DNA of 63,316 bases, filler included, from Licmophora abbreviata (GCA_900291995.1; 10 parts of 10 records of this genome joined end to end with filler, not necessarily neighbours in it), one strand, 5' to 3'. Shown: positions 4,947 through 47,383, counted from the first letter of the whole stretch. Program-made: numbers and translations. The notes: generated from the sequence alone by a model not told the origin.

Positions 4947-5365
4947 ATCGTCGTGGCGAGCGGCGTCTTTGTGATTGTGCATGCAGCCTCTACTTTGCAA
5001 GCTTTGTTTGCTGGGACTAGGGAAACCTGCAACGTAGGTAGAAGCAAGGTGGGCGTTTCGTAGTGAACTATCATGATGACAGTATGATACCAGTCATGTA
5101 GAAGTAGGAGATTAATGTAGTGCAAGTCTGTCAATTTGAAATGGACCGAGACAGCGCGTCCACGCGCGCTGCAACCTAGGAGTGACTTTTGCGACAGAAC
5201 ACCGTGGACATGGCGACATGGCACATCTTCTCGTAACAGTTGCTCTGTTGCTTCTTCTCTGTCCGGCGTTCCTCTGTTGCTCTCCTTGACCGTTGCTTGG
5301 CTTGACAGGTCAATCGGAAGAAAGCCCCTGAAAGAAGGTCGAAACTGCTTTCGTCGTCGTCCAAG

Positions 5366-6706
5366 ATGGCCCCGGGCTATTGGCACTTGACTACTGCGGG
5401 AGTGGACGATGCGCCGAGAGATGCCGTCACAGACTTTCTCAATGCCCATGAATGGGAGAGGGCCTCGGATCTTCTCGACTCGTTCGATGACGAGTTTGGG
5501 ACTGGATTTCTCTTGTCCTCTCTTCTTTTCCTGGCCAAGAAAGCCGCTTGCCCGCCTCGTCCTGTCCGAATCATGCTCACCATGCTGCAGAAAAACGTTT
5601 GGTGGATAGGCTATCGTGGGTACGAGACGGAGAACTGTTGTGCTCTCGCGCACGAAATTTTCGGGTATTCTTATATGAACAACTCCACGGAAACCTTCAA
5701 GGAGTTCGCCAAGTTCCTTGGGATCAGTTGCTACAACAAGAAGGATATGCGATGGGCTCTAGGCGGGATCATCAAGTTGTCTACAACGCTTCTTCTGAGC
5801 AGCCCGGACAAGAAGCTGCTTGCCAACATAGAGAGCGAGATCCTCCAAGTGCACTCGGTGCAGGACCTCGAGCACTCTATCAAACTACGCCAGGTCTGGA
5901 CAAAGACGGAGCTGCTGCTGCAATCAACCTTTCACAAGGACCTCGATGACCCTTCCGCGGACCACCCGTGGCTAGTCACTCACGCCCTTGTCGAATTCGA
6001 CAGTCCTTGCTTGCTTGTTTGGCTGGCTTTGAGAATGTATCCTGAACAGGCACGGACGCGAGATCATCTCGGTAGACTTCCTCTCCACTACGCCGCACAG
6101 CGCGCTCCAACCAATTTCATGGCTCTAGACTACGACACTGGAGAGCTTTCCGCGACCAAAGAGTACCCGTTTACTCTGTTGCTCCGCGCCTTTCCAGAGG
6201 CTGCCACGCTTGCTGACAGTAGCGGCAAACGCCCTCTCAACTATGCCTTGGATCTCTTGGTTGACACCAATCTTACGACCACGTCGAAGGACTGTATTGT
6301 CGAGCATTTGGTGGACCCGCTCATTGCTGCCGTGCCGGAAACCCTTGCAAAGCGTGAGCGCAGCACCCGCTTGTATCCCTACCAACAAGCTGCAGTGAAA
6401 GATGCTCCGCTAGACGTCGTCTTCAAGCTTTTGGTAGGGAATCCTTCCGCTATTCACTGTCGCGATCGCTCTTGGGTCGAGAAAGAAAACGAGTCACTAT
6501 TGGCGGAGAATGATGCGTTGAAGGGCAAGATCAGTGAGCAATCGACAGACGTTGTCCGGTTGGCGGAAGAAGTTGCTAGACTAGAAAAGGAGCTCGCCAT
6601 GGAGCCCAACAGCTGCAAGCGAGAAGCTCCCATCACTCTGAAGCGAGAAAAGGACGAGGAACCCGACGACGACACTCCTCTTTCCAAGAGATCGTATGGG
6701 GCTTGA
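5366..6706 (+). CDS. Ankyrin-like 'GRLPLHYAA' family protein, tandem copy 2
   Basis: Intronless 446-aa ORF, paralogous to both neighbours. C-terminal coiled coil and a KR...KR bipartite-NLS-like tail. Confidence 0.85.
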   Translation: MAPGYWHLTTAGVDDAPRDAVTDFLNAHEWERASDLLDSFDDEFGTGFLLSSLLFLAKKAACPPRPVRIMLTMLQKNVWWIGYRGYETENCCALAHEIFGYSYMNNSTETFKEFAKFLGISCYNKKDMRWALGGIIKLSTTLLLSSPDKKLLANIESEILQVHSVQDLEHSIKLRQVWTKTELLLQSTFHKDLDDPSADHPWLVTHALVEFDSPCLLVWLALRMYPEQARTRDHLGRLPLHYAAQRAPTNFMALDYDTGELSATKEYPFTLLLRAFPEAATLADSSGKRPLNYALDLLVDTNLTTTSKDCIVEHLVDPLIAAVPETLAKRERSTRLYPYQQAAVKDAPLDVVFKLLVGNPSAIHCRDRSWVEKENESLLAENDALKGKISEQSTDVVRLAEEVARLEKELAMEPNSCKREAPITLKREKDEEPDDDTPLSKRSYGA

Positions 6707-7124
6707 ATGCAAGAGGCAGTGGGTCTCTCGAAGATCTACGTCATCTTGGTGATTGCGTAAGATACTTCTAGTTCATGATTACATAAATGCTGCTTGTCCG
6801 TCTTCACTTTTGTCTGCCACTGTGGAAGCTCGTCATGGGGCTACAACAAGTGATGGGTGATGAAACGAGGCGTAATTGAAATAATGAGACGCCCGGTACT
6901 GGTTATATAGACAAGACGACGCGCAGACATGCTTGAGACACGATCCAGCGCGAAGAGCGCATGAAAGTCTATCATTGTCTCACGGCACAGTGTGTCCTTG
7001 CAGCTCCGCGTTGCTTCTCTGTTCGGCTGCTATCATACTACTCGAGTACTGGACTGTTGATTGGAGGGTCGAGAGGAAGGAATCCCTAGCGCCGCCTTAT
7101 CTACGATCGAATCCGTTTTGAATC

Positions 7125-8483
7125 ATGTCCCAAGAGTTCTCGTACGCGGATAGCGAAAGCCTCGAAGCGTTCATCAACGGCCGTGATTGGGAGAAGGCAT
7201 GTGATCTGCTTGCATCTTCCGATGAGTTTGCCACTGACTTTCTCCTGAACGGTCTTCGGACTGTGTCAAGGACTGTGTCATGCGAAGTATCGTGCCCTCC
7301 TCGTTTTGTCCGGATGATGCTAGCCAAGCTCCAGAACCATCCTTGGTGGCACGGCTATAGATCCTTGCTTGATTCACAACTGGATCTGGGCTGTAAGCAG
7401 CAAGGTCGCCAGTTTCTTACTAATTCTTTTGCGTATGGATCCGCTGATGCGTTCAAGGAGTTCGCCAAGGTCCTTGTGAAGGGCGTCGACAAGAGCGATA
7501 TAAACTGGGCGCGACGCGAGGTCGCTCGCTTGTGGCTCAAAGTTGCTACGAACCAGGACAGTCCGACCAAGCTGCACCCGCAAGTAGAGAAAGAAGTCCT
7601 TCAACTGCATTCGGTGCAGGATCTCGAGCAGTTCCCCTGGCTACGCCAGAGCTGGACAAAGACCGAGCTGCTGCTGCAAGCAATGTTGCTCAAGGACCTC
7701 GATGACCCATCCACGATTGCACCGTGGCTCAAAGACTTCGGTTGCCCATCCGCGGATGCACCGTGGCTAGTCACCCACGCCCTCGCCGAACTCGACTTCC
7801 CTTCGCTTCTTCTCTGGCTCGCCCTGAGAATGCAGCCTGAACAGGCATGGACGCGAGATCATCTAGGTAGACTTCCTCTCCACTACGCCGCACAGCACGA
7901 TCCAACAAATTGTATCCCTCTCGACTGCACCGGAGAACTGTCTCCTGCCAACGAGTACCCGTTTACTCTGCTGCTCCGCGCCTTTCCAGAGGCTGCCACG
8001 CTTGCTGACAGTAGCGGCAAACGCCCTCTCAACTATGCATTGGATCTCTTTGGTGACAAAGGTCTAAATCGCTGGTCAAAGGACTGTATTGTCGAGCATT
8101 TGGTGGACCCGCTCATCGCTGCCGCGCCGGAAACTCTTGCAAAGCGTGAGCGAGGCACCCGCTTGTATCCCTACCAACAAGCTGCAGTGAAAGATGCTCC
8201 GCTGGACGTCGTGTACAAGCTTCTGGTAGGGAATCCTTCCATTATTCACAGTCGTGATCGGTCTTGGGTCGAGAAAGAAAACGCGTCGCTATTGGCGGAG
8301 AATGATGCGTTGAAGGGCAAGATCAGTGAGCAATCGACAGACGTTGTCCGGTTGGCGGAAGATGTTGCTAGACTAGAAAAGGAGCTCGCCAAGCAGTACA
8401 GCGTGAAAGCTCCTACCCCTACAAAACGCAAGAAGGAAGAGGATCCAGACGATGTCCCCGGTTCTAAAAGGAGTGGTGAGTGA
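7125..8483 (+). CDS. Ankyrin-like 'GRLPLHYAA' family protein, tandem copy 3
   Basis: 452-aa ORF. The 3' half is nearly identical in DNA to copy 2. Internal 39-bp duplication at 7692-7769. Confidence 0.85.
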   Translation: MSQEFSYADSESLEAFINGRDWEKACDLLASSDEFATDFLLNGLRTVSRTVSCEVSCPPRFVRMMLAKLQNHPWWHGYRSLLDSQLDLGCKQQGRQFLTNSFAYGSADAFKEFAKVLVKGVDKSDINWARREVARLWLKVATNQDSPTKLHPQVEKEVLQLHSVQDLEQFPWLRQSWTKTELLLQAMLLKDLDDPSTIAPWLKDFGCPSADAPWLVTHALAELDFPSLLLWLALRMQPEQAWTRDHLGRLPLHYAAQHDPTNCIPLDCTGELSPANEYPFTLLLRAFPEAATLADSSGKRPLNYALDLFGDKGLNRWSKDCIVEHLVDPLIAAAPETLAKRERGTRLYPYQQAAVKDAPLDVVYKLLVGNPSIIHSRDRSWVEKENASLLAENDALKGKISEQSTDVVRLAEDVARLEKELAKQYSVKAPTPTKRKKEEDPDDVPGSKRSGE

Positions 8484-8791
8484 CCCTTGAAACATACGAA
8501 GTAAAATGATTGGACTTTCGGCGTGAGGAACCACGTGAACACTCCGGTGGTCGTGTATGAAAGTTTGCAATCATCTTGTGGGCTCTCCCAGTATCCGTGC
8601 GATTCGATTCTCTATGCTATATGATTCCATGCACACGGACGGAAAGCATATTATGTGTAGGATGCCGGTGCTTTACTTTATAAATCAACACGCGAGTCAA
8701 TCTCTACTGGCCCTCAATTTTCATCCGCGGCAATCAAATGTCAAGATTGTAGAAATCCCGTTCTACTAGTAGTAGGATAGGACTAGCATGC

Positions 8792-9823
8792 TTACTTTCG
8801 AACCGCAAAGATGGAGTAGACGTGAAAGGTCTGCAGAGAGAGAGAATCCTCCTGTTCCACAACAGTTTTGAATCCTTTCGACTTGAGCAGCTTGTCAAGC
8901 TTTTCCACTCGTCCATCCATATCGTGAACTTCCATGACGACCTGTTGAACCTTGTTCCAGTCCGCATCCGAGACTCCTCCAATGACTAAATGTTCCGCCC
9001 CTTCCACGTCTACCTTGAGTAGGTCAATGCGGTCAATCTTCTGTTCCTTGACTACTGCCGATACAGTGTCCAACTTGCAGTCCACCCAGCGTCCATGAAT
9101 AAGGTCGACCAGCATGTGAAAGGTAATGGGAAGGACGGCGAGAGAGGCCGCCGCGATGAACCCTAGGACGGGGATCCGGAAGAAGGCTTGGATTCGATCG
9201 GCGGTGGGTTGACTGATAAGCTCCGCCCTCTTGATATCATGCACCAAGCAGCATAGGGCATGAACAGGGTCCTTGATCATGGAATTGGTCATGATTTTTC
9301 CAAATTCTCCCTCGTCATTCTCACTGCGACCCATGACGGTAAAGACAGGATTTTGCTTGAACTTGAGACGACCCGGTGCATCGGAGAGTCCCATTTCATT
9401 CGTCTGGACAGTCGACTTGCTCTTGGGATGATTGTTCAACCACGTCTGTACATTCCTAGACAAGTTCTGGTAGGTAAAAGGGACTGGTTCAAAGCAGTGG
9501 ACGTGAATGTTGGAAAAACGTTCGAGGAGCGATACAACGAAGAAGCCATTGTTGGCACCGACATCCAAGACCGTGTCTCCCTCCTTGACTGAGACACCGT
9601 GGGATAGATAAATAATGCCCGTGTCGGCAAAGAATTCGCGTTTGAGGGCCAAGAATTCACCGTAGCCACTCCCGCACCAGAGCGAGAGGCCTTCCTCGTT
9701 GACCTTGTAGAGGTGAGGTTGGCCCATGGAGATGATGCGCCACACGAGGGCCACCGCGAAGAGAGCTAGGGCCGAAGTGGCGGCCGACCAGGCAGAGAAC
9801 TCGCGGAGAATGGCTTCGATCAT
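8792..9823 (-). CDS. FkbM-family SAM-dependent methyltransferase with N-terminal membrane anchor
   Basis: VLDVGANNG (motif I), HCFEP, IDLLKVDVEGAE..V..G and QVVMEVH are FkbM hallmarks. Hydrophobic N-terminus after ATG 9823. Confidence 0.9.
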   Translation of the reverse strand: MIEAILREFSAWSAATSALALFAVALVWRIISMGQPHLYKVNEEGLSLWCGSGYGEFLALKREFFADTGIIYLSHGVSVKEGDTVLDVGANNGFFVVSLLERFSNIHVHCFEPVPFTYQNLSRNVQTWLNNHPKSKSTVQTNEMGLSDAPGRLKFKQNPVFTVMGRSENDEGEFGKIMTNSMIKDPVHALCCLVHDIKRAELISQPTADRIQAFFRIPVLGFIAAASLAVLPITFHMLVDLIHGRWVDCKLDTVSAVVKEQKIDRIDLLKVDVEGAEHLVIGGVSDADWNKVQQVVMEVHDMDGRVEKLDKLLKSKGFKTVVEQEDSLSLQTFHVYSIFAVRK

Positions 9824-10266
9824 GGTTCGTGGAACAGAATTGAAGCAATCACACAATGACAATGAAGGGTACCGATACACACCAAACAAAATTGAAACGA
9901 AAACTGAAAACTGTGGCGACCACGAAAAAAGCTGTGAAGCGTTGGTTGTCCGTGGACAATAAATATACTATATTCAAGTCTTAGTAAGCATAAAAGACTA
10001 GTCAAGCGTGCCGGCGCGATCATCAATTTTGGGCACAAAAAAGCTCGATGAAAAAATGATGAGATGGCCAAAAACTAAAATCCAAAATCACAAATTCGAA
10101 AATGGCGGCGCACATCAGCTGTGCATGCACCATCGCCATCACCACCATTCACGTTGCTCTTGAGAGATTGCTCCTGATTGTGTAGACAGCGTCAGTGGGT
10201 TCTCCTGCTGTATCCTGCGTTTCAAGAAAAGTAAGTAGATCCTGTCTTGGTGGTGCAACGAGCAAA

Positions 10267-11953
10267 ATGCCGCACTTCCTTTCTCGCACCCTGGCGGCTG
10301 CGGTGCTCGTTGGCTTTGCCGCCGTTGCCTTCCAGCGACATACAAACAACAACGAGGCGTCCCATGAGTTCATTCCCAAAAAGTACTTTGACCAAGAGTC
10401 ATCAGCTCCCATGAACATTGGACTCGTCATTTCCGCCGAAACCGGTCACTGCAATCCTGGAACGACGATTGGCAAGGCCCTGGAGGAGCGGGGGCATCAT
10501 GTCACCATCATTTCGACCTTCAATGCAGCATCGTGTGTCCAACGAGCTGGACTTGACTTTATCCCAATTTCTATATCCAAAGAAGAAGAAGAAATCGTCC
10601 TTTCGGGTCTGGAAGATATGGCACGGTCGCATGGGGCTCAGGCCTTCCAGTATGCGATCCAAGCGGTCTTGGACGTCGATCGGATGATGCTGAGAGAAGT
10701 TCCCGGCATTGTGCAAGAGAAGAACTTTGACTTTATGATTATTGATGAAGTCAAACTCTCATGTGCATCCATTGCGGAACGGCACAATATACAATTCGGA
10801 GTCATCAGCAATGGTGTGCCCTTCCTGGTAGACCCTCTGTCGCCACCCTACTTTACCCCTTGGCAGCCTGCGCAATCTTGGATGGGGGCAGTGCGTATAA
10901 TGCTCACTTGGTTGAGGTACGGGATCCGAATTCGATCCATCATCCTGCAGGCCAACTCCTTCCGAAAGGAACTAGGACTTGGCGGGATTGGTTCCGACTA
11001 CAAAAAGGAGGTGCCGTCCTTCTGGTTGGCGCAAGTCCCACGCGGTCTCAATTTTCCATACAAACGATTGCCTGGAAATTTTGTTCATACGACTCCTTGG
11101 TACAAGCCCGATAGAGACCAAGAGTTTGCTACGTCCTTTCCTTGGGAAAAGTTGGACGGGCGTCCTATTCTCTACGTGTCCTTGGGTACCATGCAGAATC
11201 GAATCGATACGCTCTTTGTCAGGCTGGCGGAGGCGTGTATGGACTTGGACGTACAATTGGTAATGACACTGGGTCGTCGGGGCGCCACACTGGAAGGCAG
11301 TGATACTACTACATTTCCAAAGGGAGCCATCGTGGTGGACTACGCCCCGCAGGTCCAGCTGCTGGAACGGGCGACGGCGCTCGTGACGCACGCCGGCATG
11401 AACACGGCACTGGAGGCCCTTTCCTACGGACTGCCCATGCTGGCGCTGCCCGTCAATACGGATCAGCCGGGCGTGGCGGCCCGTCTCGCATTCGCAGGAG
11501 CGGCGGAGGTCGTGCGACCGGACGAAACAGCGAGCTCTGCGGTGCTGCGGGAGGCCCTGGAACGGATTCTGATCGATCCGAGCTACCGGCAAGCGGCGGA
11601 GAAGCTGCGGGATGAGATTCGTCGGGGGCCTACGCTGGAGCAAGTGGCAGAGCTGGTGGAGATTGGGTTCTCGAAGGGATTGTCAGACGACGAGGCCTTC
11701 AATGTGAGACCGGNNNNNNNNNNNNNNNNNNNNNNNNNNNNNNNNNNNNNNNNNNNNTTAATTAATTAANNNNNNNNNNNNNNNNNNNNNNNNNNNNNNN
11801 NNNNNNNNNNNNNAAGTCGTTCGCATCGTTGGAGAGCCGCCTCCCGAAGCTACCATGACGTATGACTCGCTTGTTGTCATTGTGGCGGTCGCCATGGTTG
11901 CTGCTATTCGGATACTGCTAGGCCGTAGGAGAGGCGTTCGGAAAAAGGGGTAA
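10267..11953 (+). CDS. GT1 glycosyltransferase, bacterial MGT/CrtX-like, copy 1 (spans gap; C-terminal TM tail at 11816-11953)
   Basis: TGHCNP, RGHHVT, YVSLGT, YAPQVQLL...VTHAGMNTALEALSYGLPM...DQP signature. After the gap the frame reads VVRIVGEPPP...hydrophobic...RRRGVRKKG-stop; joining it to this gene is inferred. Confidence 0.88.
11814..11844 (+). repeat. Left arm of an inverted repeat (pairs with 15458-15488)
   Basis: AAGTCGTTCGCATCGTTGGAGAGCC(G/C)CCTCC matches the reverse complement of the other end of this contig at 30/31 positions. Confidence 0.95.
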
Positions 11954-12456
11954 CGAGGATATGCTCTTGCTACGTCGATATTTGATAGTCGCGGTAACAC
12001 GCGCACCGATGGATAACAAGGGCACGACTTGTTCCAGTGTTTGCTTCCGACTTTGTTGTTTCATAGAGTATGAATCTAGGAGGATACGAGCGCCTTACTC
12101 CGCCACTACGAGTCCTGCTTGGATATGTCTGCGGCATCATCGGCCATACGAGGGAGTGGTCGCGCGATCGAACTTCCTTTCGCGTATGTATGTTCGCTTC
12201 TGTCGCAGACGGGTGTCGCTTGCGCACAATCTTAGCGCCCCTCTCTCTATGCGACACAAAAGCTTGTAGCTATATATTGGATCACGAACGCTAACGCGAG
12301 TACAGAATGTCGCACCCAAGATGTACAAAACATGCACAAAAATGAAAGGTCATCCTCGTTTGGACCGCGCCGCCACTCACTTTCTACTAGATCTATCCAG
12401 AAAAGGGATTGTTGGAGGATATACTCATTCGAGACTCTCATCATTCATACACAAGC

Positions 12457-15243
12457 ATGACAACGATGAGGCCCGTCCATGTCGACGTGTCCAGCATAGA
12501 TCTAGAGATACCGGAGGAAATAATTCGCAGCAGCGATGAGAATGCCGTCAAGGAATGGATCTGGCAGCACCGCAAGAAGGAGCTGCTGCGAAATTTACAA
12601 ATTGAAATTCGAAACAAGCCATTCCAAGAGCAGCAACCACAGCCGACATCGAACAAACTAGAAGAAACTGAAAAGAGACTGAGTTTACTGGATAGAATCG
12701 CGCAAGTGCAGCGCCAGTTTCTGCAGAGCGAAGGTCCGAAAGTTGTATTTTCGTGCTTGTTAGAAGGACTTTTGCAGCTCATGGACAGCGAGTATGGTTT
12801 CATAGGCGAAGTCAAGTACGAAGACGATGGGACCACCATGTACTTGCAGACGCATGCCATCACCAATATCGCATGGGATGCTGCTACAAGAGCCTTTTAC
12901 GATGAAAATGTCGACAGTGGCTTGAAATTTACCAATATGAAGAGTCTCTTTGGGACTGTCATGGTCAACAAGGAACCTGTCATTTCGAATACTCCCAAGA
13001 AGGATTCACGAGCCTGCGGAGTGCCCAAGGGTCATCCGCCTCTCAATCACTTTCTCGGAATTCCATTCTTCAAGAAGGGTGGTGAAATGAATGGCATGGT
13101 CGGTGTCGCCAACAAGCCGGGGGGATACAGCGAACAAGACATTGAGTTCCTGGAGCCCTTCACTGTCACATGCAGCAATCTTATTCAAGCCTACTCACAG
13201 ATTCAACAGAACTTGCACTTGATCAATACGCTCGAGGAAAAAGTCACAGAGCGGACACAAGAACTCGAACAAGCCAACCGGCACCTCGAGGACGCCAACA
13301 AGAAGGTGCTCCGCGCTTCCGCCGCGCAGCTCCAACACTTTGCCTGTATGAGTCACGAAATCCGAACGCCGCTCAATTGCATCATCGGCCTGTCCAGTCT
13401 GTTGCAAGAGACCAAGTTGCAGCCCCAGCAAGAAGAAACTTTGAACATGATAGTGTCATCGGGAGACTTGCTGCTTACCGTCGTGAATGATGTGCTGGAT
13501 TATAGCAAGCTGGAATCGGGCAATGTCGATATTGAAGTGCGGAAGAGCAACTTGCAGGAAACGCTCGACAGTATCGTACACAGTATCGAGATGAAGGCGA
13601 AGGAGAAGCATTTGATTGTGCGAACATTCTATGATACGTCGCTTCCCGAACATGTCCATACGGACAGTCGGCGATTGCAACAAATCTTGTATAATTTGCT
13701 GGGAAATGCCATCAAATTCAGCAAAGAAGGGGGAGTGGTCGAGTTGGGAGTCTGTATATGCGACCGCAACGCTGCTACGAGAACCCATGCTAGTGCTGAG
13801 AGCGTCCCACAGTCAGAGACAAACGGTGACTCCGACAAGCGATTGGAAGATGGTAACGACCATGATGACAACCATGTGGACAGAGGCAGTTCAAATGTGA
13901 CAACTGGAAGCCCTCGTGGAGGGTCTCTCCTCGCAGACGAACACGACTCTGAGTCTCGATGTCCGTTCTTACGCACCTCTGAAAATCAGGCATCCGGAGC
14001 GAGCTCTGATACGACTATCAGCGAGGTAGCGCCGCCCAGTCTCCATCAGGGGGTCGCCTGTCCGTTTGCATTTCCTGGGCGCGATTCGACTTGCAAAGAA
14101 GAAATAGATAGTGCAAACGTATTGCGCTTTGTCGTGAAGGATTATGGCAGAGGCATCAATAAGAAGGATTTCACAAGAATCTTTAAACCTTTTGACCAGG
14201 CGACGGTCGATACAGAGAGACTGTACGGTGGTACTGGTTTAGGGCTGGCCATCACATCCAAACTCATTCACGGTCTTGGTGGAAGCATTTCAGTGGATAG
14301 CGTGGAAGACGAGTGGTCTCGATTCACCGTGGAGCTTCCTTTGGTGGATGCACCTGTCGATGTGGAAGGACTGTCAAAACGATGGAGGGATAGAACCATT
14401 ATCCTTGTTCACACTGATCTCGGAAAAGCTTCACGGTTCAACTCGATCTGCTCGGCATACGATATAGAGACGGTCCATTTCCAAAGCCTGGACGAAATGA
14501 GCGATTGGACGCAAAAGGCTGGATCGATTCAGCCTGAGCGCAGTTACATATGTCTCGTGTATGAGGAACTATTTCGTCCTGGTCCGTATGAAGATCTGGC
14601 GTCCATGGCAAACTCCGTGCTTTTAACATGCGGACCAAAGTATAGCGTGGCCGTATCTCGCGAGCACTATCGCTCGCTGCTCCGGGTCATTCCATCTGTG
14701 CTGATGAAGTCGATGGGAATCTGGTTAGACTCATCTGCTCCGGTCTCGAAAACAACTGCTAGTATTGCTTCGTCTTCAAGATTACGTTCGCTTCCTGTCC
14801 CATACGGTGATTTGCGGGTCCTCGTTGCGGAGGACAATCTAATCAACCAGAAAGTACTACATCGGATGCTGAAAAGATTGGGCATGAGCAAGGTCGATCT
14901 TGTGGACAATGGTCAGAAAGCGGTGGATCAGGAAGCTGTCGAGGAGTACGATGTCGTGTTTATGGATATGCAGATGCCCGTCATGGGCGGAGTGGATGCT
15001 TGTCGCGAGATCGTTAAGAGACGGGGCAGCCGCTCGATACCGACAGTTGTGTTTGTTACTGCCCACGTGGAGAGCTCCTTCGAGCTAGAGGCAGCAAATG
15101 CAGGTGGCAGTGGCTTCCTACCAAAGCCATTCAACCTTCAGGAAATTGAAAAATGCTTCCAGAAACTGCAGTTGTCTGGGTCGCCTCCAGAGGATTCCAG
15201 CAGTTTGAAAGTAGCTGCCTCCTCAGAGGCATATCTGGGGTAA
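12457..15243 (+). CDS. Hybrid sensor histidine kinase (GAF-HisKA-HATPase-REC)
   Basis: GAF region with GHPPLNHFLGIP, H-box MSHEIRTPLN, N-box QILYNLLGNAIKF, G-boxes DYGRGI and GGTGLGL, receiver with VAEDN, FMDMQMP and PKPF. Intronless. Confidence 0.95.
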   Translation: MTTMRPVHVDVSSIDLEIPEEIIRSSDENAVKEWIWQHRKKELLRNLQIEIRNKPFQEQQPQPTSNKLEETEKRLSLLDRIAQVQRQFLQSEGPKVVFSCLLEGLLQLMDSEYGFIGEVKYEDDGTTMYLQTHAITNIAWDAATRAFYDENVDSGLKFTNMKSLFGTVMVNKEPVISNTPKKDSRACGVPKGHPPLNHFLGIPFFKKGGEMNGMVGVANKPGGYSEQDIEFLEPFTVTCSNLIQAYSQIQQNLHLINTLEEKVTERTQELEQANRHLEDANKKVLRASAAQLQHFACMSHEIRTPLNCIIGLSSLLQETKLQPQQEETLNMIVSSGDLLLTVVNDVLDYSKLESGNVDIEVRKSNLQETLDSIVHSIEMKAKEKHLIVRTFYDTSLPEHVHTDSRRLQQILYNLLGNAIKFSKEGGVVELGVCICDRNAATRTHASAESVPQSETNGDSDKRLEDGNDHDDNHVDRGSSNVTTGSPRGGSLLADEHDSESRCPFLRTSENQASGASSDTTISEVAPPSLHQGVACPFAFPGRDSTCKEEIDSANVLRFVVKDYGRGINKKDFTRIFKPFDQATVDTERLYGGTGLGLAITSKLIHGLGGSISVDSVEDEWSRFTVELPLVDAPVDVEGLSKRWRDRTIILVHTDLGKASRFNSICSAYDIETVHFQSLDEMSDWTQKAGSIQPERSYICLVYEELFRPGPYEDLASMANSVLLTCGPKYSVAVSREHYRSLLRVIPSVLMKSMGIWLDSSAPVSKTTASIASSSRLRSLPVPYGDLRVLVAEDNLINQKVLHRMLKRLGMSKVDLVDNGQKAVDQEAVEEYDVVFMDMQMPVMGGVDACREIVKRRGSRSIPTVVFVTAHVESSFELEAANAGGSGFLPKPFNLQEIEKCFQKLQLSGSPPEDSSSLKVAASSEAYLG

Positions 15244-15321
15244 CAGTCGAATGCCAAGTAATGGAGACGATACCTAGCATGTGTCTTCAGTAGTCTTATG
15301 TGCTTTACCTCCTCCTCCTCC

Positions 15322-16762
15322 TCAGTGTTGCACTGCTTTTCCTCGGCTTGGTCTGCTTCCTCTATGTCGTGCACGATACATTACCCAAGCGACGGCAACT
15401 GCAATGAAAACAAATAGGAGCGCCTGTCTCGTTGACCTCGAGGAAAAGGATGCCTGTGGAGGGGGCTCTCCAACGATGCGAACGACTTNNNNNNNNNNNN
15501 NNNNNNNNNNNNNNNNNNNNNNNNNNNNNNNNTTAATTAATTAANNNNNNNNNNNNNNNNNNNNNNNNNNNNNNNNNNNNNNNNNNNNCGTAGGAAAGGG
15601 CCTCCAGTGCCGTGTTCATGCCGGCGTGCGTCACGAGCGCCGTCGCCCGTTCCAGCAGCTGGACCTGCGGGGCGTAGTCCACCACGATGGCTCCCTTTGG
15701 AAATGTAGTAGTATCACTGCCTTCCAGTGTGGCGCCCCGACGACCCAGTGTCATTACCAATTGAACGTCCAAGTCCATGCACGCCTCCGCCAGCATGAGG
15801 TACCGCTCTTCGACTTGGTTCTGAACAGTACCCAAGGACACGTAGAGAATAGGACGCCCGTCCAACTTTTCCCACGGGAATGAATCGCTCGTCGCCGTTC
15901 GTCGAGTGCTATTGTGCCATGGAACGGTGTGAACAAAGTTCCCAGGCAACCGTCTGTAAGGGAAATCAAGGCAGCTGGGTAGTTGGGACAGCCAAAAAGA
16001 CGGAGCCTCCCCCTTCAACCTGGGGCTCATCGTGCCCAGTCCCTGTTTCCTTCGATATTCGTTGATTTGGAAGAGGTTGGATCTACCGAGCACCCCGAGT
16101 TTTAACCAAGCAAAGAGGTTGCGGACAGCACCAGTGAACGCAAAGGTGGGCTGCCAGGACGTAAAGGTGGGCGGGGCGATCGCGTCTGGAATTTGCGGAA
16201 TACCTGTACTGATGAGTCCGCTCTGTATATTGTGCGCTTGCGCTACGGATACACAAGAGAGGAGCATTTCGTCAATGATCAAAAAGTCAAAGCTTTTATT
16301 CGTACTAGCAGAAGGATGCTGGAGGACACCGGGGACGTCTCGCAGCAGCATTCGATCGAGTTCCCATGCAAACTTGACGGCATGCTGGAAGGCACCCCGC
16401 GATGAGGAGCGCGCAATTTCTTCAAAGCCAGAGGCAATAATCTCCTGCTCTTGTTTGGAAGTACCAATGGGGATGAAATCGAGTCCGGTTCGTTCCGCAT
16501 AAACTTGCGCGTTGGGGGTTGAAATGATCGTCACATGATGGCCTCGCTCCTGCAAGGCCTGCCCCAAGGACGTTCCCGGATTGCAGTGTCCCGTAGCACC
16601 CGTCAGGATCATACCAATGTTCATCATGGAAGACGACTCTCTATCGAAGACTTTCGGGCTATCGACGAACTCATTGCTGTTGTTTTGGTGCCGTTGGAAG
16701 GCTACAGCCGCAAACACGACGAGCAGCGCGGCCAATGTTAGGCGGGAAACGGAGAGCGGCAT
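15322..16762 (-). CDS. GT1 glycosyltransferase, bacterial MGT/CrtX-like, copy 2 (spans gap; C-terminal TM tail at 15486-15322)
   Basis: Paralog of copy 1 with the same motifs. The tail reads VVRIVGEPPPQ...ALLFVFIAVAVAWVMY...AVQH-stop on the minus strand; joining it is inferred. Confidence 0.88.
15458..15488 (-). repeat. Right arm of an inverted repeat (pairs with 11814-11844)
   Basis: Reverse complement of the contig start. Encodes VVRIVGEPPP in both glycosyltransferase copies. Confidence 0.95.
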
Positions 16763-17212
16763 TGTATTTTGGGGGCCCGAACGAACAGCAGCTACAATAA
16801 CGATAAATTCAACTCAAGGCTTCTGTAGCAACAAAGCCTGATACAGCAAGAGCAAGAAGGGACGCCAGGAGCCATAGTAGCAACGCAACGAAGTGCGGAT
16901 GGCTGACGTCCGCTGTGGTGTTGCTGTGGATCCTGAGAATGGCGGTGCTTTGATGTGCTTTCTCATCGTCACTGGATTTTTGGAATTTTGAATTGGACTT
17001 TTGACTTTTGGGTTTTGGGGGGTGGGTTTGGAAATAAATCCAAAAGGACATTGGAAATCCAAAAAACATCGTAGCACGTCTCACATCTCTCGTGTGTGTG
17101 TGATCACCATGATGAACCCTTTCCTTGCCGCCGGGAGATAGATAGCTGACCCTCGATCGTCTCGCAGACTAGTAGGGTGGAATTGACTCTTAGGATAGAA
17201 GTCATTACAACA

Positions 17213-18120
17213 ATGAATTTGATGCGACAGCATCTCATAAAGCTCATTTCGAGCGCTTCCTTTGAAACAACTCCAAAGCAAGCAGCTGCTGATTTGGCTC
17301 ATTTTAGGACTATTGCACCAACTGCAACACGCGTTTCGGTCACCTTTCTTCCGGGAACTGCTTTCGTGATACTATCGAAGCATCCAAGCGGCTCCTGCAT
17401 CCGCACGGGCTCTCGCCAATCCCGACCTTCTGTGCACGGGCCTTTCGAAATAAGCAAGACGTGGAAGAGAGTCTTCAGATGCTACGCGACCAACTTCCAG
17501 AGGTCGATGAAGTCTATGTCTTCGCGGGGAGTGTTTCGGAGCCGTTGGGAGATTTTCGTACTTCCATGGACTTGTTAGAGACGGGGCTATTTGACAAGTA
17601 CGGCATTGGAAGAATCGGCTTGGCAAGCCATCCGGAGGGATTGCAGGACGTCAGTGACGACGAACTGGCGTCCGCTCTTGCTTACAAAAACTCATTCGCT
17701 GCAGATCGCACTGATGCCGAGTGCTTTCTTGTCACACAGTTCTGTTTTGAGTCGGCGCCTATTCTAAAATGGGAGAAGAGGATCCGTGTTGAGGGGCATA
17801 ATAGACTGCCAATTCACGTTGGGGTGCCAGGCATTGCGTCGGTGACGACGCTACTGAAGCATGCTCGAAACTGTGGTGTTGGTCCGTCAATGCGCGTGTT
17901 GCAACAAAAAGGGGCTGATCTCACAAAGTTGGTGACGTGGAAACCCGATGGATTGCTTTTAGATCTGGCCGAGGCGCGAGCGAACGATCCAGAATGCCTC
18001 ATCGAATCGGTCCATTGGTACCCTTTTGGTGGAATCTACAAGACAGCCAAGCTTTCGAATTCAATTGCAATGGGAACGTTTGCGATAGATGAGGACAGTA
18101 AGAGCCTTCAAGTATTTTGA
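17213..18120 (+). pseudogene. metF: Bacterial-type methylenetetrahydrofolate reductase (MetF-like) with a 1-nt frameshift near 17360
   Basis: SFETTPK...VTFLPGT is in one frame. FRDTIEASKRL...HPEG...VTQFCF...IHVGVPG...CGVGPS...HWYPFGG is in another. Restoring one base gives a continuous ~302-aa catalytic-domain-only protein. Confidence 0.8.
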
Positions 18121-18521
18121 ACTGCATACTACGCTCATCGAGCATAGGCAAAGGCTTTGGGTGATGTATGATAGCGGACTAAGAATGATAGCTCGCGGAG
18201 TGAGTTTTGGCCGATTTCTGGCTCCCCGACGCTGGCCGGCCTCTCACTCTTTTGGCGAACCCTACTGGCTGGCTTGCGCGCAGCGCGTCCCCCAACGGCT
18301 GAACGTGATGATGACGATGAACAATCATTGCAATCAGATCGTCGACATCATTCGGCATGTAGACTGCCGCCGGCATTGCCTTTTCTCAATCTTCCTTTCG
18401 TCTATCGTGTAGTCTACTCTAGACTACTCCTGGTTTTCGTCTGTGCGGTTCAGATTGCGTTTTGACGGAAAAAATCAGAGCAGCATTGACCGTCCCTCTG
18501 CAACTCGCTGTAATTGTGACA

Positions 18522-19319
18522 ATGAACAACCCCGTTCGTGCCTACATTCGTGGTCGAGTGCTGGATGTCATCCTTCACGCTCGAGACCTCACTGTTCGGG
18601 ATATCCTACTCCCGTACGTCCAAGGAAACGTACTGGACGTTGGCTGTGGGACTGGCGAAATATCAGAACTCCTGCTTCAGCACGACAAAGGCCAGATCGA
18701 ATCGATTGTCGGATTAGACCCGCATTTGCCTCCCGAACCGAAAATCCCTGTCAAGGCCTTTGATGGTTATACGATTCCATTTGGAGACAAGCAGTTTGAT
18801 ACTGTCATAAGCAGTTTTATCTTGCATCATGCGGAGGACCCTGGCGTGCTCCTGGATGAAATGAGACGGGTTGGGGCGGATCATGTGGTCGTTTTGGAAG
18901 ATGCCGTGGACACGCCTCCGGCGCGAGCGGCTGCCCTCGCGCTGCATGATAAGATGAAGCAGTTGTCTGGGATGGAGTATGAACCCGATGGGTTTCATAC
19001 ACCAGAGGATTGGAACCGCATCTTCTCGGGGCACGGCTTTCGTGTGGATCTGCAAGCACGACTGCCAAGCAGTATGCCTTTCTTTCCGAGTCTTGGTCAC
19101 CATCTGTTTGTACTTTCGGACCAAGATACTGTGGCTAATTTGCATTCATACGAGGCTTTGAACGTTCATCACGTTTATTATCGCATCTATCTTGTCTACA
19201 TGGTGTCGCTTCTGCTTCTATTTTCAGTTTCTGCTTTCGCTATCCGAGTTATCTTGTCGGTTTTGAGAAAGGGATCTGGTCGCCCGTCACCGTCAGCTGG
19301 TTCGAAAAAGGTAAATTGA
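18522..19319 (+). CDS. Class I SAM-dependent methyltransferase, C-terminal TM and KKVN tail (start uncertain)
   Basis: VLDVGCGTG, IPFGDKQFD, FILHHAED, VVVLED. Hydrophobic segment followed by ...SKKVN-stop. Confidence 0.88.
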   Translation: MNNPVRAYIRGRVLDVILHARDLTVRDILLPYVQGNVLDVGCGTGEISELLLQHDKGQIESIVGLDPHLPPEPKIPVKAFDGYTIPFGDKQFDTVISSFILHHAEDPGVLLDEMRRVGADHVVVLEDAVDTPPARAAALALHDKMKQLSGMEYEPDGFHTPEDWNRIFSGHGFRVDLQARLPSSMPFFPSLGHHLFVLSDQDTVANLHSYEALNVHHVYYRIYLVYMVSLLLLFSVSAFAIRVILSVLRKGSGRPSPSAGSKKVN

Positions 19320-19947
19320 ACGCGGTTGGTGTCTCAGCAGCTTGATTTTGAGCTAATAGAACGTCCCTGCATAGAGGGGTGTGATTCTTATTAGAGTGCC
19401 TTGGTAATCTATCTGTCTCGTATGTAGGAGTGTAAAGGTCCACTTCTCGTACCGCGGCACGGTGCAAAAAAGACGCAACATACTGTTCCATTGTATCTGA
19501 CTGTCTTACTGCCCGCTTAAAGCCAGCTTGAGCTCTGCAGTATGACCGTTGGGCATGCTATTGGGATCGGGCAGATGGGTGAGGCGGTGAGACCCGTCAT
19601 CACTCATTGTTTCTGTGTGTGATAAGGGGAGCAAGCACACTCAGATTGCAAAAGCTGCACCGACGATAACAGACTGTAGACAGCTGTCGCGTGAAAATCG
19701 AACGTCTCTTCAACGCCGGCACAATCTTGTCTCTGTTTTTGTGTCGCTGTTTGCATCATTGAACAAGCTGCTTTCCTGCATTTGCCTGTCTCTTTGTTTC
19801 CCTTGAGTCGACAGGGAAAAGATTTGTCGGATAGACTGGATCGAAAAGGTGACGATTATTTTCCGAAGTGACTACATATCATAGCGCTTCTATCTACACA
19901 GTATACGAGTACCAGCACCGTCAGTACTATCTTATCTCGCAGCGACA

Positions 19948-20694
19948 ATGATCGTACGTTGGATCCTTTTCATGGTCCGCCACCTGACAGTTCGGGACAT
20001 TCTGCTCCCCTACGTTCACGGGAAAGTCCTAGATGTCGGTTGCGGACGCGGTGAAGTAGGAAAACTGCTCAGTCATCAAACGAGCCGGATCGAATCGCTG
20101 GTAGGAATCGACCCGTACTTGCCGGAAAAACCGAAAATTCCCGTTGAGACCTTTGATGGACGCCATATTCCTTTCGAGGATAAGCACTTTGATTCTGTCA
20201 TTAGCAGTTTTATCCTGCACCATGCCGATGATCAGGGCGCTCTTCTGAGAGAAATGAAGAGGGTCGGGGAACGTGTCGTGGTCTTGGAGGATGCGGTGGA
20301 CACGCCGAAAGCGCGATCCTCTGTCCTCGGTTTGCACGATGCAATGAAGCGGAACGGTATGGACTATGACCCCGATGGCTTTCATACGCCAGAGGAGTGG
20401 AGCCGCATATTCGCGGAGCATGGCTTTCGTGTGGATCTTCAGGAGCGGCTGCCAAGCACCATGCCCTTCTTCAATAATCTCAATCACCATCTCTTTGTCC
20501 TCTCGGATCTAGACGCTCCCGCGAATTCGTACGAGGCGTTGGATATCGGCAGTGTATACTATCGAATTCAGCTTGTCCACATGGTGTTTGCCGTCCTCCT
20601 GCTTGCATTCTTGGTTTTCGTTGCCCGCATGTTGCGAAAGAAAGTAAGCGGTACTGCATCTGGGACGAAGAAGAAGAAGAAGAAGGTCAATTGA
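19948..20694 (+). CDS. Class I SAM-dependent methyltransferase, tandem paralog, C-terminal TM and KKVN tail
   Basis: VLDVGCGRG, IPFEDKHFD, FILHHADD. Clearly paralogous to the upstream gene. Ends KKKKKKVN. Confidence 0.88.
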   Translation: MIVRWILFMVRHLTVRDILLPYVHGKVLDVGCGRGEVGKLLSHQTSRIESLVGIDPYLPEKPKIPVETFDGRHIPFEDKHFDSVISSFILHHADDQGALLREMKRVGERVVVLEDAVDTPKARSSVLGLHDAMKRNGMDYDPDGFHTPEEWSRIFAEHGFRVDLQERLPSTMPFFNNLNHHLFVLSDLDAPANSYEALDIGSVYYRIQLVHMVFAVLLLAFLVFVARMLRKKVSGTASGTKKKKKKVN

Positions 20695-20886
20695 CGTGGT
20701 ATTACAGCACGATGTGCTCTGCCTTTGGAACTCAATAATTCACTTTGGTCGAATGATAGAACGATAGAATTATAATCGTTGTGATCAAGTCGCAGTGGGC
20801 GCAACGTCCTTGTACCGCTGCGGATAAGCCAAAGAGTGCCCGCCCTCTGTTTTTCGACTCGTAGACAATAGACTGATGAATGCATC

Positions 20887-22372
20887 TTACAATTCTATGA
20901 ACGACGTACATCCTTTGTGATAGGGTCCTTTGTAGTCTCTTTGATGTATCCCTGAGAGGCAACGTTCTGATTAGTGGCTGGTCGGAAACGAGTGAGACAC
21001 ACCGAATCCATAGCTTAGAGTACTCACATGCATTTGCTCCGTACTTGACTCCCTTGGTCACCGGCAGAGCTTGATGTTCGGTTCTTGCGTCTATCTCATT
21101 TGGATGCTCATCCAGCACACTAGGCCATATCAGAGCTCGCCCTCTCCTTGGAAGCACGGTAATGTTCAGTCGAGGAAAGTTCGTTCCTCCGCCTTCCTCC
21201 ACGTCGCTGAGATAGATGAACACAGTTAAAATACGCACACCTTGAGCTCTCTCCTTTTGGATCGCCCCGTAGTCGTGATGAATCTGAAGAAGTCAACGGG
21301 AGGAATAGTGAGCACCGTCTTGCAACACAACACAACGACACCGCCGCTGGCGGCCACAACTCACATGGTAGAATTGGCCAACATTGTATTTGAGCAGCTG
21401 CCAGTATTCACTGTTTGTTTCGGGAATCTTGGTGATGCCAGTGACTCGCTCGAGAACTCGTTGCGTCACAGTGTCTCTAAAACAACTATTTTCACACCAT
21501 GCATTCGAACTTGTACGACCAGAATGGTAGTAGCTGCCAAACGTCCCATCTTCCTTCAGAGCTCCCGCGTCGGCACTCGGGCGATATCCCTCTGCGGCTC
21601 CTAGCTCTATCATTCGCTCGGCTTCTTCAGCATTCAGGATATTGTCCAGCACTACGATCCATGGCCCCAGCTGATAGCTGGCGGTCTCGTTCGTGTCGCC
21701 CGGCAGGTACTCGGGTCGCGACAAGATTTGAGGGTCGTACCGCCGGTTGTCGGGGAGAGTCGTCAGATTTGTAAAAAATCGATTCACATCACCTGGCTCC
21801 CAGACGCTTGGCATCGTATCGGGGTCGTAAGGGCACAGCGTTTCGACCGAGAGATACTCGCAGGAGTGACATAGCGGCGCGCACTTGCGGCGAGTCCAGT
21901 TGGGATTGCTGTCGCATACGCCCGAGAGCGCATAGTATGCACAGAGTTCGGAGTAGTTTCGGCATTTTGGTAAGAGAAGCTCCAACTTTGGATCGCCTTT
22001 AATCTCGGAAGTCAGATACTCTCGAGCCTCTTGTAGTTTGGACTCGGCTTGACTTTGCAGCTTGGCGCTTATGAGTTGAGGTACGCCGAGGGTGCTCTCC
22101 GTGTCGAGCAAGGTACAGAAATCACAGCTCTTTCGACAGTGGTCAGCCATGTACGCAGCATTCTTGTTGCAGGCACCGTTCAGAGCCCATCGATGGCAGC
22201 GCGAGTCTTGGTCCAGGCAGGGCGGGGCTCCGGCGTTGGCGGTGCATGATGTGCCGTCTGTTAAAGAACACGTCTGAATATCTCTGGCGAGCGCTGTCTT
22301 GCTACCATGCCGGTAAACGCCAGTGAACACACATAAGAGTAACACGGATTTACGCAAGGGAGACGTGCCCAT
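20887..22372 (-). CDS. ShK-domain prolyl 4-hydroxylase alpha-like 2OG-Fe(II) dioxygenase (exons 22372-21365, 21283-21028, 20951-20887)
   Basis: Signal peptide and two ShK-like Cys domains, then RTSSNAWC. Splicing restores FYHIHHDY...RILTVFIYLSDVEEGGGT...HQALPV.KGVKYGANAWIH. Confidence 0.92.
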
Positions 22373-22664
22373 GGTATAGCTCGCTGAATGGGGCACCTAT
22401 GCTGATGAAGTTGGCTGGATGACTGAAGGTCTACCGCCGCGGTCATCGTCTGTGCCATGTTGAATGTCGAGCATCATGTCTCGGCGGGACGGAAAACTTC
22501 TACTTCATATACTCGTATTCACACATGAATATATGTTTGATGAATCGTTCCACGATCCGCGCACAATCCTCTCCTCTCACAAACTTGCACTCCGAATGTT
22601 CCGGCGGGACCCATTCTGACATCAAACGAGATGTGCTCATGGAGAAGGATAACACCCGAACACC

Positions 22665-23588
22665 ATGAGCTTCTTATCGCTTGAAGAGCTCATACAGCAG
22701 GAGCGATGGGAGGAGGCTGAGAGCAAGTTGAACAAGCTGCCATGGACGCGACGCTCGAACGAAATCTATGCTGGATTCAAACATGCGTGTCGTATTCATT
22801 CCAGAGTTCCGTGTTTGTTCTTTCGAGAACTGGTGATGATGCTCAGCGATCTTTCTTGCTTACAGGCTAGTGGATTGACCAGTGTCCCAGTGGTAGCGCT
22901 CAAAGATACGCTGAAGTGCGTGTACAACGACGGACCGTCCACCACATCCGGCCTTCGTCCCCTATTTAGTTTCTGTGTTCAAGAAATGTGGAACGCCTAC
23001 TTCTCAAGTCGTGGTGCAAAAGATATGTTCGCTGAGCTTATGAACGTGTCATCACTAGAAGATCTCGACGCATTTCCTGATTTAAAAAGCACCTGGCAAA
23101 AGACAGAAGTGTATCTTGCCGTCATGGTGGGCCGTGACTTGGACAACGATCCATCTGCCGAACGCGGGTGGCTGGTTGTGCATGCTATTGCTCAGAGCCG
23201 TAAGATTCCGGGTTTCCTCATATGTCTTGCTCTCACGATGTATCCTGAGCAGATTCGAACAAGGAATGGCCGGGGGCGACTTCCACTTCATTACGCGGCG
23301 GAGGAGGGCCATGCACCTTGGATGCATCATGGTGTGCCATTTACAGGGGTTCTGCAAGAAGCCAATGAGCACATGACACCATACATCATACGTCGCTTCC
23401 CTGAAGGCTCTCGATTTGCTGATAATGACGGGAGGCTTCCTCTGAGCCTGGCTCTGGAGGGCAACTGCGATTCCTCTGAGTCTTCCGTCATTATTGATCT
23501 GCTTGTGAATGCAGCACCCGACGCACTTGTTGCACGAGATCCCAAGACCCATTTTTGGCCTTTCCAGCTCGCGGTGTCGTCAGGACAA
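22665..23588 (+). CDS. Ankyrin-like 'GRLPLHYAA' family protein, divergent fourth member (3' end in gap)
   Basis: WQKTE, WLVVHA, YPEQIRTRNGRGRLPLHYAA, GRLPLSLAL and THFWPFQLA match the 3.6-8.5 kb array. Confidence 0.82.
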
Positions 23589-23688: not shown

Positions 23689-24050
23689 ACCGTGCCTTCT
23701 GTCATGCCTAGCACTTCGCCAAGTGAGACTCCCACCGTGACCAAGTCGGCTACCCCAAGCACCGTTCCTTCTGTCATGCCCAGCTTGCTGCCAAGTGAGA
23801 CCCCCACCGTCACCAGGTCTTCTGTTCCGAGCGTTATGCCTTCCGTCGTGCCCAGCTTGCTGCCAAGTGAGACCCCCACCGTCACCAAGTCCACTGTTCC
23901 GAGCTCCATGCCTTCCTTGACGCCCAGCTCGTCGCCAAGTGCGAGTCCCACGGTCACAGAGTCGTCTGCTCCAAGCGTCTTACCTTCCGTGGTGCCCAGC
24001 GCATTGCCAAGTGAGACTCCGACCATCACCGAGTCGATGGCGCCAAGTGT
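23689..24050 (+). repeat. Coding tandem repeat, 72-bp (24-aa) unit, about 5 copies visible
   Basis: Units start at 23689, 23761, 23833 and onward, encoding variants of PSVMPSLLPSETPTVTKS. The array continues into the gap. Confidence 0.9.
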
Positions 24051-31570: not shown

Positions 31571-32210
31571 GGTCAGTCAATGGCTCTAAGTCAAGTCTTT
31601 CCTTGTTTACACAATCAATGGTGACGCGGTGCCCCCAATGCCATGCTCTCGATGAGTGTGTGGCATGTGATATTTTTTATTTTTGACTTTTGACTTTTTC
31701 GATTGTTTCCCGCCCAAATTTCGATTACCGATCATGCTCATAAAAGGCAATGAGTATTATCAATGCTGACCCGACTCTAAAAATCCGTTGAGATAATTAT
31801 TTATATCTTCATAAATATATACTATTTACTCTCTTCAACACGAATGACTGACTAGACCTGTCACACTTTAATCACTTCAGGACGAACTTTGGTTTGTCCA
31901 TGCTTTCCTCACACGCCCGATCAGTGTGGAGATGGTAGTCTAACCCTTGAAAGTCGCCGAAACTCAGGGACATGGTACTCTAGAGGATAAGCGGCAGTGG
32001 TAGTCGCGTTTGCCTCGATCTCGCATTTCACTTTCCCATACTCAATGCTAACTTGAAATCTCCAAAAATTACAAAGCTTCTAATTCAAATTTCTAAGCGC
32101 CGCTCAAACGCACAGAACCCCATTTGGGGTCCCGCAACTCAGGGTCGTGTTTTGGATTCCACGCACACGAGAGTGTCCTAAAGAACTCGCCTCCCACTAG
32201 GTGACTCAGT

Positions 32211-47359: not shown

Positions 47360-47383
47360 GGGAACCCTGAACCGCCCGCCCTG

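Follow-up and report, generated by a model that had tools for sequence, protein, structure and literature searches.

The locus described here is a block of seven genes at positions 8792-20694 of a 63,316-base stretch of the genome of the diatom Licmophora abbreviata (GCA_900291995.1), which we refer to as the window. The block encodes an FkbM-family methyltransferase, two family 1 glycosyltransferases (GT1a and GT1b), a hybrid histidine kinase lying between the two GT1 genes, a homologue of type-4 methylenetetrahydrofolate reductase (MTHFR) and two S-adenosylmethionine (SAM) methyltransferases, MT1 and MT2 (Table 1). Within 12 kb lie adjacent genes of non-homologous enzyme families, namely FkbM, GT1, class I methyltransferases and the type-4 MTHFR homologue. 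We established the gene content and the adjacency of the genes, the family assignments, two duplications and the membrane segments of the products, and the interpretation of the block as a biosynthetic cluster, made in an initial annotation, is partly supported. Pfam searches agreed with the domain content listed there, with the caveat that the gene called 'MetF' scored below its cut-off, and the two head-to-head spacers, given as about 450 bp, have close to that length.

Table 1. Position of the genes of the block, the spacers and linkers between them and the adjoining genes in the window
Feature	Position	Strand	Description
FkbM-family methyltransferase, 343 aa	8792-9823	-	PF05050 55.7 bits; TIGR01444 84.8 bits
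Divergent spacer FkbM/GT1a	9824-10266		443 bp
GT1a, main body	10267-11713	+	MGT/OleD-type GT1 with N-terminal membrane anchor; UDPGT 74 bits, EryCIII-like_C 66.5 bits
Inverted repeat, left arm	11254-11713 plus 25 nt at 11814-11838		remainder of the right arm falls within the gap
Artificial linker N44-TTAATTAATTAA-N44	11714-11813		assembly gap inside GT1a; data fit zero missing bases
GT1a, C-terminal tail	11814-11953	+	2 bases and 45 codons; membrane segment, basic end, stop
Hybrid histidine kinase	12409-15243 (ORF; first ATG 12457)	+	GAF, HisKA, HATPase_c with low-complexity insert, REC
GT1b, C-terminal tail	15322-15488	-	54 codons with membrane segment, then stop
Artificial linker	15489-15588		real gap inside GT1b; ~95 codons (~287 nt) missing
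GT1b, main body	15589-16762	-	391 codons and 1 base; N-terminal membrane anchor; UDPGT 34.7 bits, Glyco_transf_28 31.2 bits
Divergent spacer GT1b/MTHFR homologue	16763-17212		450 bp
Type-4 (S6MTHFR-like) MTHFR homologue	17213-18120	+	two frames, 17213-~17360 and ~17362-18120; 1-nt deficit at ~17360
SAM methyltransferase MT1, 265 aa	18522-19319	+	Methyltransf_23/_11/_25/_31 over cut-offs; C-terminal hydrophobic stretch, K-K-V-N end
SAM methyltransferase MT2, 248 aa	19948-20694	+	tandem MT1 paralogue; equal C-terminal architecture, K-K-V-N end
Right neighbour, ShK domain and 2OG-Fe(II) (2-oxoglutarate- and iron-dependent) oxygenase, prolyl 4-hydroxylase-like	20732-22396	-	two ORFs 54 nt apart
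Right-flank ankyrin-like paralogue	22665-23588	+	38-40% identical to left-flank copies

Contiguity of the locus

Nine identical 100-nt linkers (N44 + TTAATTAATTAA + N44) connect the ten pieces of the window, and the gene block spans pieces B (3983-11713), C (11814-15488) and D (15589-23588), so that a linker interrupts each of the two GT1 genes. GT1a leaves piece B after codon 482 plus one base, and piece C opens with the other two bases of that codon, followed by a 45-residue tail with a hydrophobic segment and a basic end and by a stop codon at 11951-11953. The alignment of GT1a to its closest relative (P0004, 58% identity) ends at about residue 434, and the peptide encoded at the start of piece C aligns with residues 436-453 of the same relative. 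Read as its reverse complement, the opposite end of piece C encodes a paralogous tail of 54 residues in the orientation of GT1b, matching residues 436-475 of P0004 (E 2e-5); the two tails are 47% identical to each other. GT1b itself is cut where residue 411 of the 506-residue GT1a open reading frame (ORF) aligns, which places the missing codons in the gap between pieces C and D.

One ankyrin-like gene is split over the join of pieces A and B. Since genes are split across the A-B, B-C and C-D joins, these pieces stand in their true scaffold order, and the placement of B, C and D next to one another in this order is supported. The physical linkage of the genes assumed in the initial annotation was borne out in the same way, the GT1 tails at both ends of piece C being in frame and in orientation with the neighbouring pieces. 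As the two ends of piece C are equivalent, the orientation of this piece, and of the kinase gene on it, is undecidable. Our first reading, that the window is a concatenation of unrelated contigs, was dropped in view of the two GT1 tails and the gene split at the A-B join. On a practical matter, linkers between contigs can mimic proof of an artefact, although genes split over linkers prove adjacency.

Ten pieces joined by artificial linkers and carrying enzymes that look bacterial by family could also represent a false cluster of mis-scaffolded or contaminating bacterial contigs. We consider this very improbable, since the three joins are crossed by split genes with the right frame and orientation, the spacers measure 400-600 bp, the membrane tails are absent from the bacterial homologues and both a ShK domain and the ankyrin-like family are present in the flanks. 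In their codon usage the six enzyme genes equal seven flanking genes (r = 0.84; 0.74 in a control in which native genes were split in half). Public reads matched to piece D gave only low-depth contigs of 81-436 nt, from marine metagenomes and one organism-labelled run, and bridged no gap; 17 of the 26 contigs were at least 99% identical and the rest 95-99%. These contigs, from four runs of three studies, include the junction of GT1a-specific and shared sequence, which likewise speaks against a false cluster.

The eukaryotic host proposed by the initial annotation was confirmed by the enolase gene on piece A, for which all 11 organism-named rows among the 120 best matches are diatoms, at 85-90% identity. 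We conclude that the block is a genuine contiguous nuclear diatom locus.

Enzyme families and the inverted GT1 duplication

GT1a exceeded the Pfam cut-offs for UDPGT (19.5 bits) and EryCIII-like_C (31.7 bits), and GT1b exceeded that for UDPGT. With 142.3 bits for TIGR01426 (NCBIfam MGT; cut-off 260), GT1a is related to the curated macrolide glycosyltransferase subfamily and falls outside it; its relatives in the PDB include the small-molecule GT1 enzymes OleD/OleI, YjiC and CalG. Ten residues are invariant in a 12-row alignment (A1), namely G60, H61, N63, P64, D160, H375, G377, N379, T380 and E383, and we take G-H-x-N-P to be the region of the catalytic His and the C-terminal residues to be the donor-binding motif of GT1. 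The three named bacterial GT1 proteins in this alignment have neither the N-terminal nor the C-terminal extension. In animals, the GT1 domain of the UDP-glucuronosyltransferases (UGTs) of the endoplasmic reticulum (ER) is preceded by a hydrophobic N-terminal signal or anchor and followed by a membrane segment at the C-terminus that ends in a short basic tail. The diatom GT1 proteins have the same architecture, with UGT2B7 as a weak match in the PDB (2e-11), but are nearer to bacterial MGT by sequence, and their tail ends are not canonical KKXX.

The two GT1 proteins are 63% identical overall, and comparison of their DNA gave 94% identity over 286 nt. The 175 nt at 11254-11428 are 100% identical to the reverse complement of 15589-15763, with the last mismatch at 11253, and a perfect 25-mer is found at 11814 (+) and 15464 (-), the two ends of piece C (chance expectation 0). 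This 25-nt terminal inverted repeat of piece C is common coding sequence of the two GT1 tails, and it is because the DNA of GT1a and GT1b is identical there that the assembler broke at the gaps. If the missing part is identical as well, an inverted repeat of about 0.5 kb flanks a kinase segment of 3.6 kb. An unrooted tree of 82 rows, from which 6 of 77 genome loci were left out because of stops or short matches, placed GT1a and GT1b as sisters (support 98) with P0004 next (support 100). The three fall within an eight-member clade of tail-bearing sequences (support 100), which adjoins GT1 of Planctomycetota (support 92, not starred). The inverted pair arose by local duplication, around the hybrid kinase gene, and its identical 3' halves are probably maintained by gene conversion. 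Sugar donors bind to the C-terminal domain of GT-B enzymes and acceptors to the N-terminal one. Given their common donor domain and diverged acceptor domains, the two enzymes would use a single activated sugar but each attach it to a lipophilic acceptor of its own.

The FkbM protein passed both of its models (cut-offs: PF05050 22.7, TIGR01444 37.7 bits), with hydropathy segments at residues 13-31 (N-terminal, membrane) and 213-231 (internal). MT1 and MT2 are 63% identical to each other; they are class I SAM methyltransferases with scores over the cut-offs for Methyltransf_11, _23 and _25 (48.5, 47.4 and 37.8 bits for MT1; 50.4, 47.5 and 40.8 bits for MT2), and neither reached an NCBIfam equivalog. 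This tandem pair, downstream in the block, was also built by local duplication. A C-terminal KKXX-type pattern is an ER retrieval signal, and the K-K-V-N ends of MT1 and MT2 fit it by pattern only. All four kinase domains scored over their Pfam cut-offs (GAF_2 69, HisKA 63.2, HATPase_c 75.8 and Response_reg 83.8 bits). Taken together, hydropathy indicated membrane segments in five of the seven proteins (FkbM, GT1a, GT1b, MT1 and MT2) and none in the kinase or the MTHFR homologue.

In the MT1-MT2 spacer and in the neighbourhood of the first codons of MT2, contigs from public runs differ from the window by a 35-nt skip (19600-19636), a 7-nt loss (19671) and a 6-nt gain (19894). These small indels at 19600-19900 are probably population variants.

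The MTHFR homologue

The two frames of the MTHFR homologue are separated by an indel and not by an intron: a contig from a marine metagenome, with 95-99% identity to the window, carries one more C behind position 17360 that makes the frame continuous, and the N-terminal piece can be aligned to the start of the closest relative (P0260, 60%). Canonical MTHFR models failed on the protein, with 16.7 bits for PF02219 (cut-off 24) and 22.7 bits for TIGR00677 (cut-off 310). Its C-terminal part matched PDB entry 7xg9 (chain residues 54-276) with an E-value of 1.2e-39 and its N-terminal piece matched residues 9-50 of the same entry with 0.042, while a profile of 30 family members reached 9.6e-86. Judged by sequence, the gene called 'MetF' is thus a member of the type-4 S6MTHFR family, for which we found 1,736 matches at E <=0.001.

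S6MTHFR, the founding type-4 enzyme, comes from Sphingobium lignivorans SYK-6 (7xg9/7xlf; ligM-metF-ligH operon), and its similarity with the diatom protein is full-length. According to its description (PMC11868366), it oxidises methyltetrahydrofolate (CH3-THF) to methylenetetrahydrofolate (CH2-THF), yields no detectable CH3-THF from NADH and CH2-THF, reduces FAD with NADH at 0.03 umol/min/mg, compared with 125.4 umol/min/mg for the E. coli enzyme, and has THF-dependent demethylases as its partners. Residues Glu21, Thr23, Thr46, Leu48, Pro49, Phe176, Cys219, Tyr267, Pro268, Phe269, Gly270 and Gly271, numbered as in that source, have conserved equivalents in the diatom protein, so that the type-specific Leu-Pro, Cys219 and Y-P-F-G-G are present, but the equivalent of Arg78 is Ala (the neighbouring Arg77 is kept) and that of Phe215 is His. 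In addition, a His conserved throughout the family is Thr in the diatom protein, and P0260 has the same Thr. A GcvT-like domain, as in THF-dependent demethylases, was found in none of the 40 window ORFs scanned with Pfam (of 56 listed ORFs of at least 150 aa). One bacterial relative (P0395, 839 aa) has the type-4 MTHFR-like domain fused to a formate-tetrahydrofolate ligase, which supports a one-carbon folate role for the family.

The diatom protein is therefore predicted to oxidise CH3-THF to CH2-THF, and its type-4 identity does not support a private methyl supply to SAM. The initial annotation had taken 'MetF' to link folate to the SAM cycle, a role that is not supported in view of the match to 7xg9 and of the direction of the S6MTHFR reaction (PMC11868366). 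Whereas type 4 as described there comprises bacteria only, the diatom gene is eukaryotic and nuclear. Our literature searches found no description of a eukaryotic type-4 MTHFR; the homologue lists in the supplements of PMC11868366 could hold eukaryotic entries.

These results bear directly on the full model of the initial annotation, in which the whole block is one co-regulated pathway, with the kinase as its dedicated sensor and MetF supplying methyl groups via the SAM cycle. It is a model suggested by the arrangement of the genes: the kinase gene sits precisely in between GT1a and GT1b, the MTHFR homologue shares the 450-bp divergent spacer with GT1b, and the two methyltransferases come next. 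We nevertheless regard it as improbable. Besides missing the canonical models, the MTHFR homologue is of type 4 and keeps the Leu-Pro and Y-P-F-G-G motifs that block NADH binding in S6MTHFR, and that enzyme gave no detectable CH3-THF (PMC11868366). The kinase, for its part, is linked to the other genes by position, and its orientation between the repeats cannot be fixed.

Origin of the genes and evidence for a shared pathway

Among the best 120 matches, all organism-named rows for GT1 were bacterial, at 33-38% identity, and those for FkbM were bacterial at about 30-32%, but for one green alga at 34%. No diatom transcriptome entries occurred among these matches of either protein; the database includes such entries, and weaker homologues are possible. 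Relatives of the MTHFR homologue at 42-46% identity include some on contigs of 2.7-4.8 Mb, that is, of bacterial size, and one cluster bears the name of a bacterial family. For MT1 and MT2 the ten nearest Atlas clusters are mostly bacterial, a weak lead, as according to the tool's own text such rows are no sign of gene transfer. Together with the host codon usage, this fits old bacterial acquisitions with a patchy distribution. Of the 'horizontally acquired genes' in the initial annotation, the part concerning GT1, FkbM and the MTHFR homologue is upheld as far as their nearest identified relatives are bacterial, and for MT1 and MT2 there is the weak lead. Transfer of the genes from bacteria into a diatom is plausible rather than demonstrated, the trees being unrooted. 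The GT1, FkbM and MTHFR-like genes are of bacterial type and fully adapted to the host, with its codon usage, anchors added at the N-terminus and membrane tails at the C-terminus.

Two other origins were rejected. Giant viruses or phages gave no relatives of GT1 and the MTHFR homologue, nine weak methyltransferase loci and, for FkbM, only weak matches, of which the best full-length one has 30% identity. Co-transfer of a cyanobacterial GT1-FkbM operon is unsupported by the GT1 and FkbM trees: in the unrooted FkbM tree of 82 rows, which left out L050 (a 58-aa match) and P0166 (584 aa), the GT1-linked cyanobacterial FkbM sequences stand apart from the diatom FkbM.

What the enzymes do together is a more difficult question. 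We tentatively read the membrane-bound enzymes as a decoration module of the endomembrane system, a reading to which we give slightly less than an even chance. The enzymes would act at an endomembrane, probably that of the ER, where either the sugar or the aglycone would be the target of O-methylation by FkbM and MT1/MT2; the shared pathway, the substrate class, the ER location and any regulation are what we infer from the families and the membrane segments. The link of the kinase to the module is positional and unproven, and neither the kinase nor the MTHFR homologue is part of the claim. In a far more ambitious version, the diatom would have put bacterial-type genes together to give a functioning, co-regulated pathway of the endomembranes that yields a methylated glycolipid or glycoside, with the first eukaryotic type-4 MTHFR and with the kinase between perfect inverted repeats of about 0.5 kb in two convergent GT1 genes. 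We see this as a long shot; if it were true, recombination could flip the kinase segment and exchange the membrane tails of the GT1 enzymes.

A close known counterpart is found in bacteria. Of 157 GT1 loci from bacteria or metagenomes, 7 carry an FkbM homologue no more than 10 kb away, and in five of these seven it follows GT1 immediately and in the same direction, for the most part in cyanobacteria. Bacterial GT1 of the MGT/OleD/YjiC type and the cyanobacterial GT1-FkbM pairs (L089, L141, L147, L022 and L050) belong to the same Pfam families as the diatom proteins, with 33-39% identity in GT1; in bacteria as in the diatom the FkbM gene adjoins the GT1 gene, and the invariant G-H-x-N-P and the donor-site motifs are kept. 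However, the diatom genes are head-to-head across 443 bp whereas the bacterial ones are co-directional with spacers of about 30-180 nt, and the diatom GT1 proteins have N-terminal anchors and C-terminal membrane tails. The diatom genes are also apart from the operon-linked bacterial genes in both trees, GT1 being nearest to Planctomycetota at the unstarred support given above. Since the diatom genes have closer relatives than these bacterial pairs, the GT1-FkbM pairing is an analogy and not the inheritance of an operon. A scan of metagenomes returned, among the matches listed, loci that are 31-39% identical and bacterial-looking, and scans of the region for Rfam families and tRNAs found nothing.

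Several observations weigh against a shared pathway. With GT1 and the SAM methyltransferases each present twice, the block has only five independent families, and in this assembly the frame of the MTHFR-like gene is interrupted. Homologues of MT1/MT2 or of the type-4 MTHFR are absent from the 10 kb around each of the 157 bacterial GT1 loci, and the cyanobacterial FkbM and GT1 genes that are linked to each other fall in other parts of the trees than the diatom genes. The 443- and 450-bp spacers have a similarity score of 26, which is not significant (maximum of 28 in 200 shuffles). Furthermore, diatom genomes are compact, and unrelated neighbours are common in them.

The alternative is a neighbourhood without a shared pathway, in which bacterial-type genes became adjacent by chance and duplications inflate the impression of a cluster. 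We rate this as a serious possibility, if somewhat short of an even chance. It would account for the small number of independent families, for GT1 loci in bacteria that lack the methyltransferase and MTHFR homologues, and for promoters without common similarity. Single genes transferred from bacteria are also common: a survey of nine diatom genomes puts them at an estimated 3-5% of genes, with SAM methyltransferase domains enriched (bioRxiv 10.1101/2020.01.24.918219). That survey, on the other hand, reports no clear clustering of transferred genes at particular positions in the genome (bioRxiv 10.1101/2020.01.24.918219), and this argues against a chance neighbourhood. The recurrence of GT1-FkbM adjacency in bacteria, the membrane anchoring of five of the seven products and the equal C-terminal ends of the two methyltransferases also argue against it and are in line with the endomembrane module that we tentatively prefer.

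To the right of the block, the two ORFs with the ShK domain and the oxygenase probably belong to a single gene that is interrupted by a short intron or a frame error. On the left (3614-8483) lie three to four tandem ankyrin-like genes (weak match) with 57-62% mutual identity, among them the one split over the A-B gap. Further along the window, piece E starts with a Ser/Pro/Thr-rich, mucin-like ORF (23689-24040) made of 72-nt tandem repeats, 77-78% identical between copies. A 974-aa ORF at 27511-30435 (+) contains a partial aromatic amino acid lyase of the histidine/phenylalanine ammonia-lyase type (residues 180-290) and a complete histidyl-tRNA synthetase; this is a fusion or, alternatively, a pair of genes that were read through as one. 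At 30695-38276 and 59953-61011 we found more genes related to glycans, namely GT25, a galactose/glyoxal-oxidase-like protein, an ABCG transporter, GT61 and DUF3431; the region would be rich in glycan genes if the following pieces are in scaffold order as well. The sequence at 44544-48300 (piece G) has a GC content that rises to 58-63%, a strong negative GC skew and long minus-strand ORFs without a Pfam match, a composition unlike that of the rest of the window.

In Pseudo-nitzschia, the domoic acid (dab) genes form a eukaryotic metabolic cluster, with non-homologous enzyme genes adjacent in a diatom nuclear genome. The block described here has different enzyme families. To our knowledge, metabolic gene clusters are rare in diatoms, and searches of the literature on FkbM in diatoms and on diatom biosynthetic clusters with glycosyltransferases found no such cluster described. 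We therefore consider the locus a candidate eukaryotic metabolic gene cluster, and the features that stand out are the inverted GT1 duplication around a kinase gene and the eukaryotic type-4 MTHFR homologue. A type-4 MTHFR in a marine eukaryote, from a family whose members described to date all come from bacteria able to demethylate aromatic or chlorinated compounds, would bear on one-carbon cycling in phytoplankton. Enzyme families of bacterial type number at least three, and probably four, in the locus, which is a testable candidate for how microalgae may build new lipid or glycan decorations.

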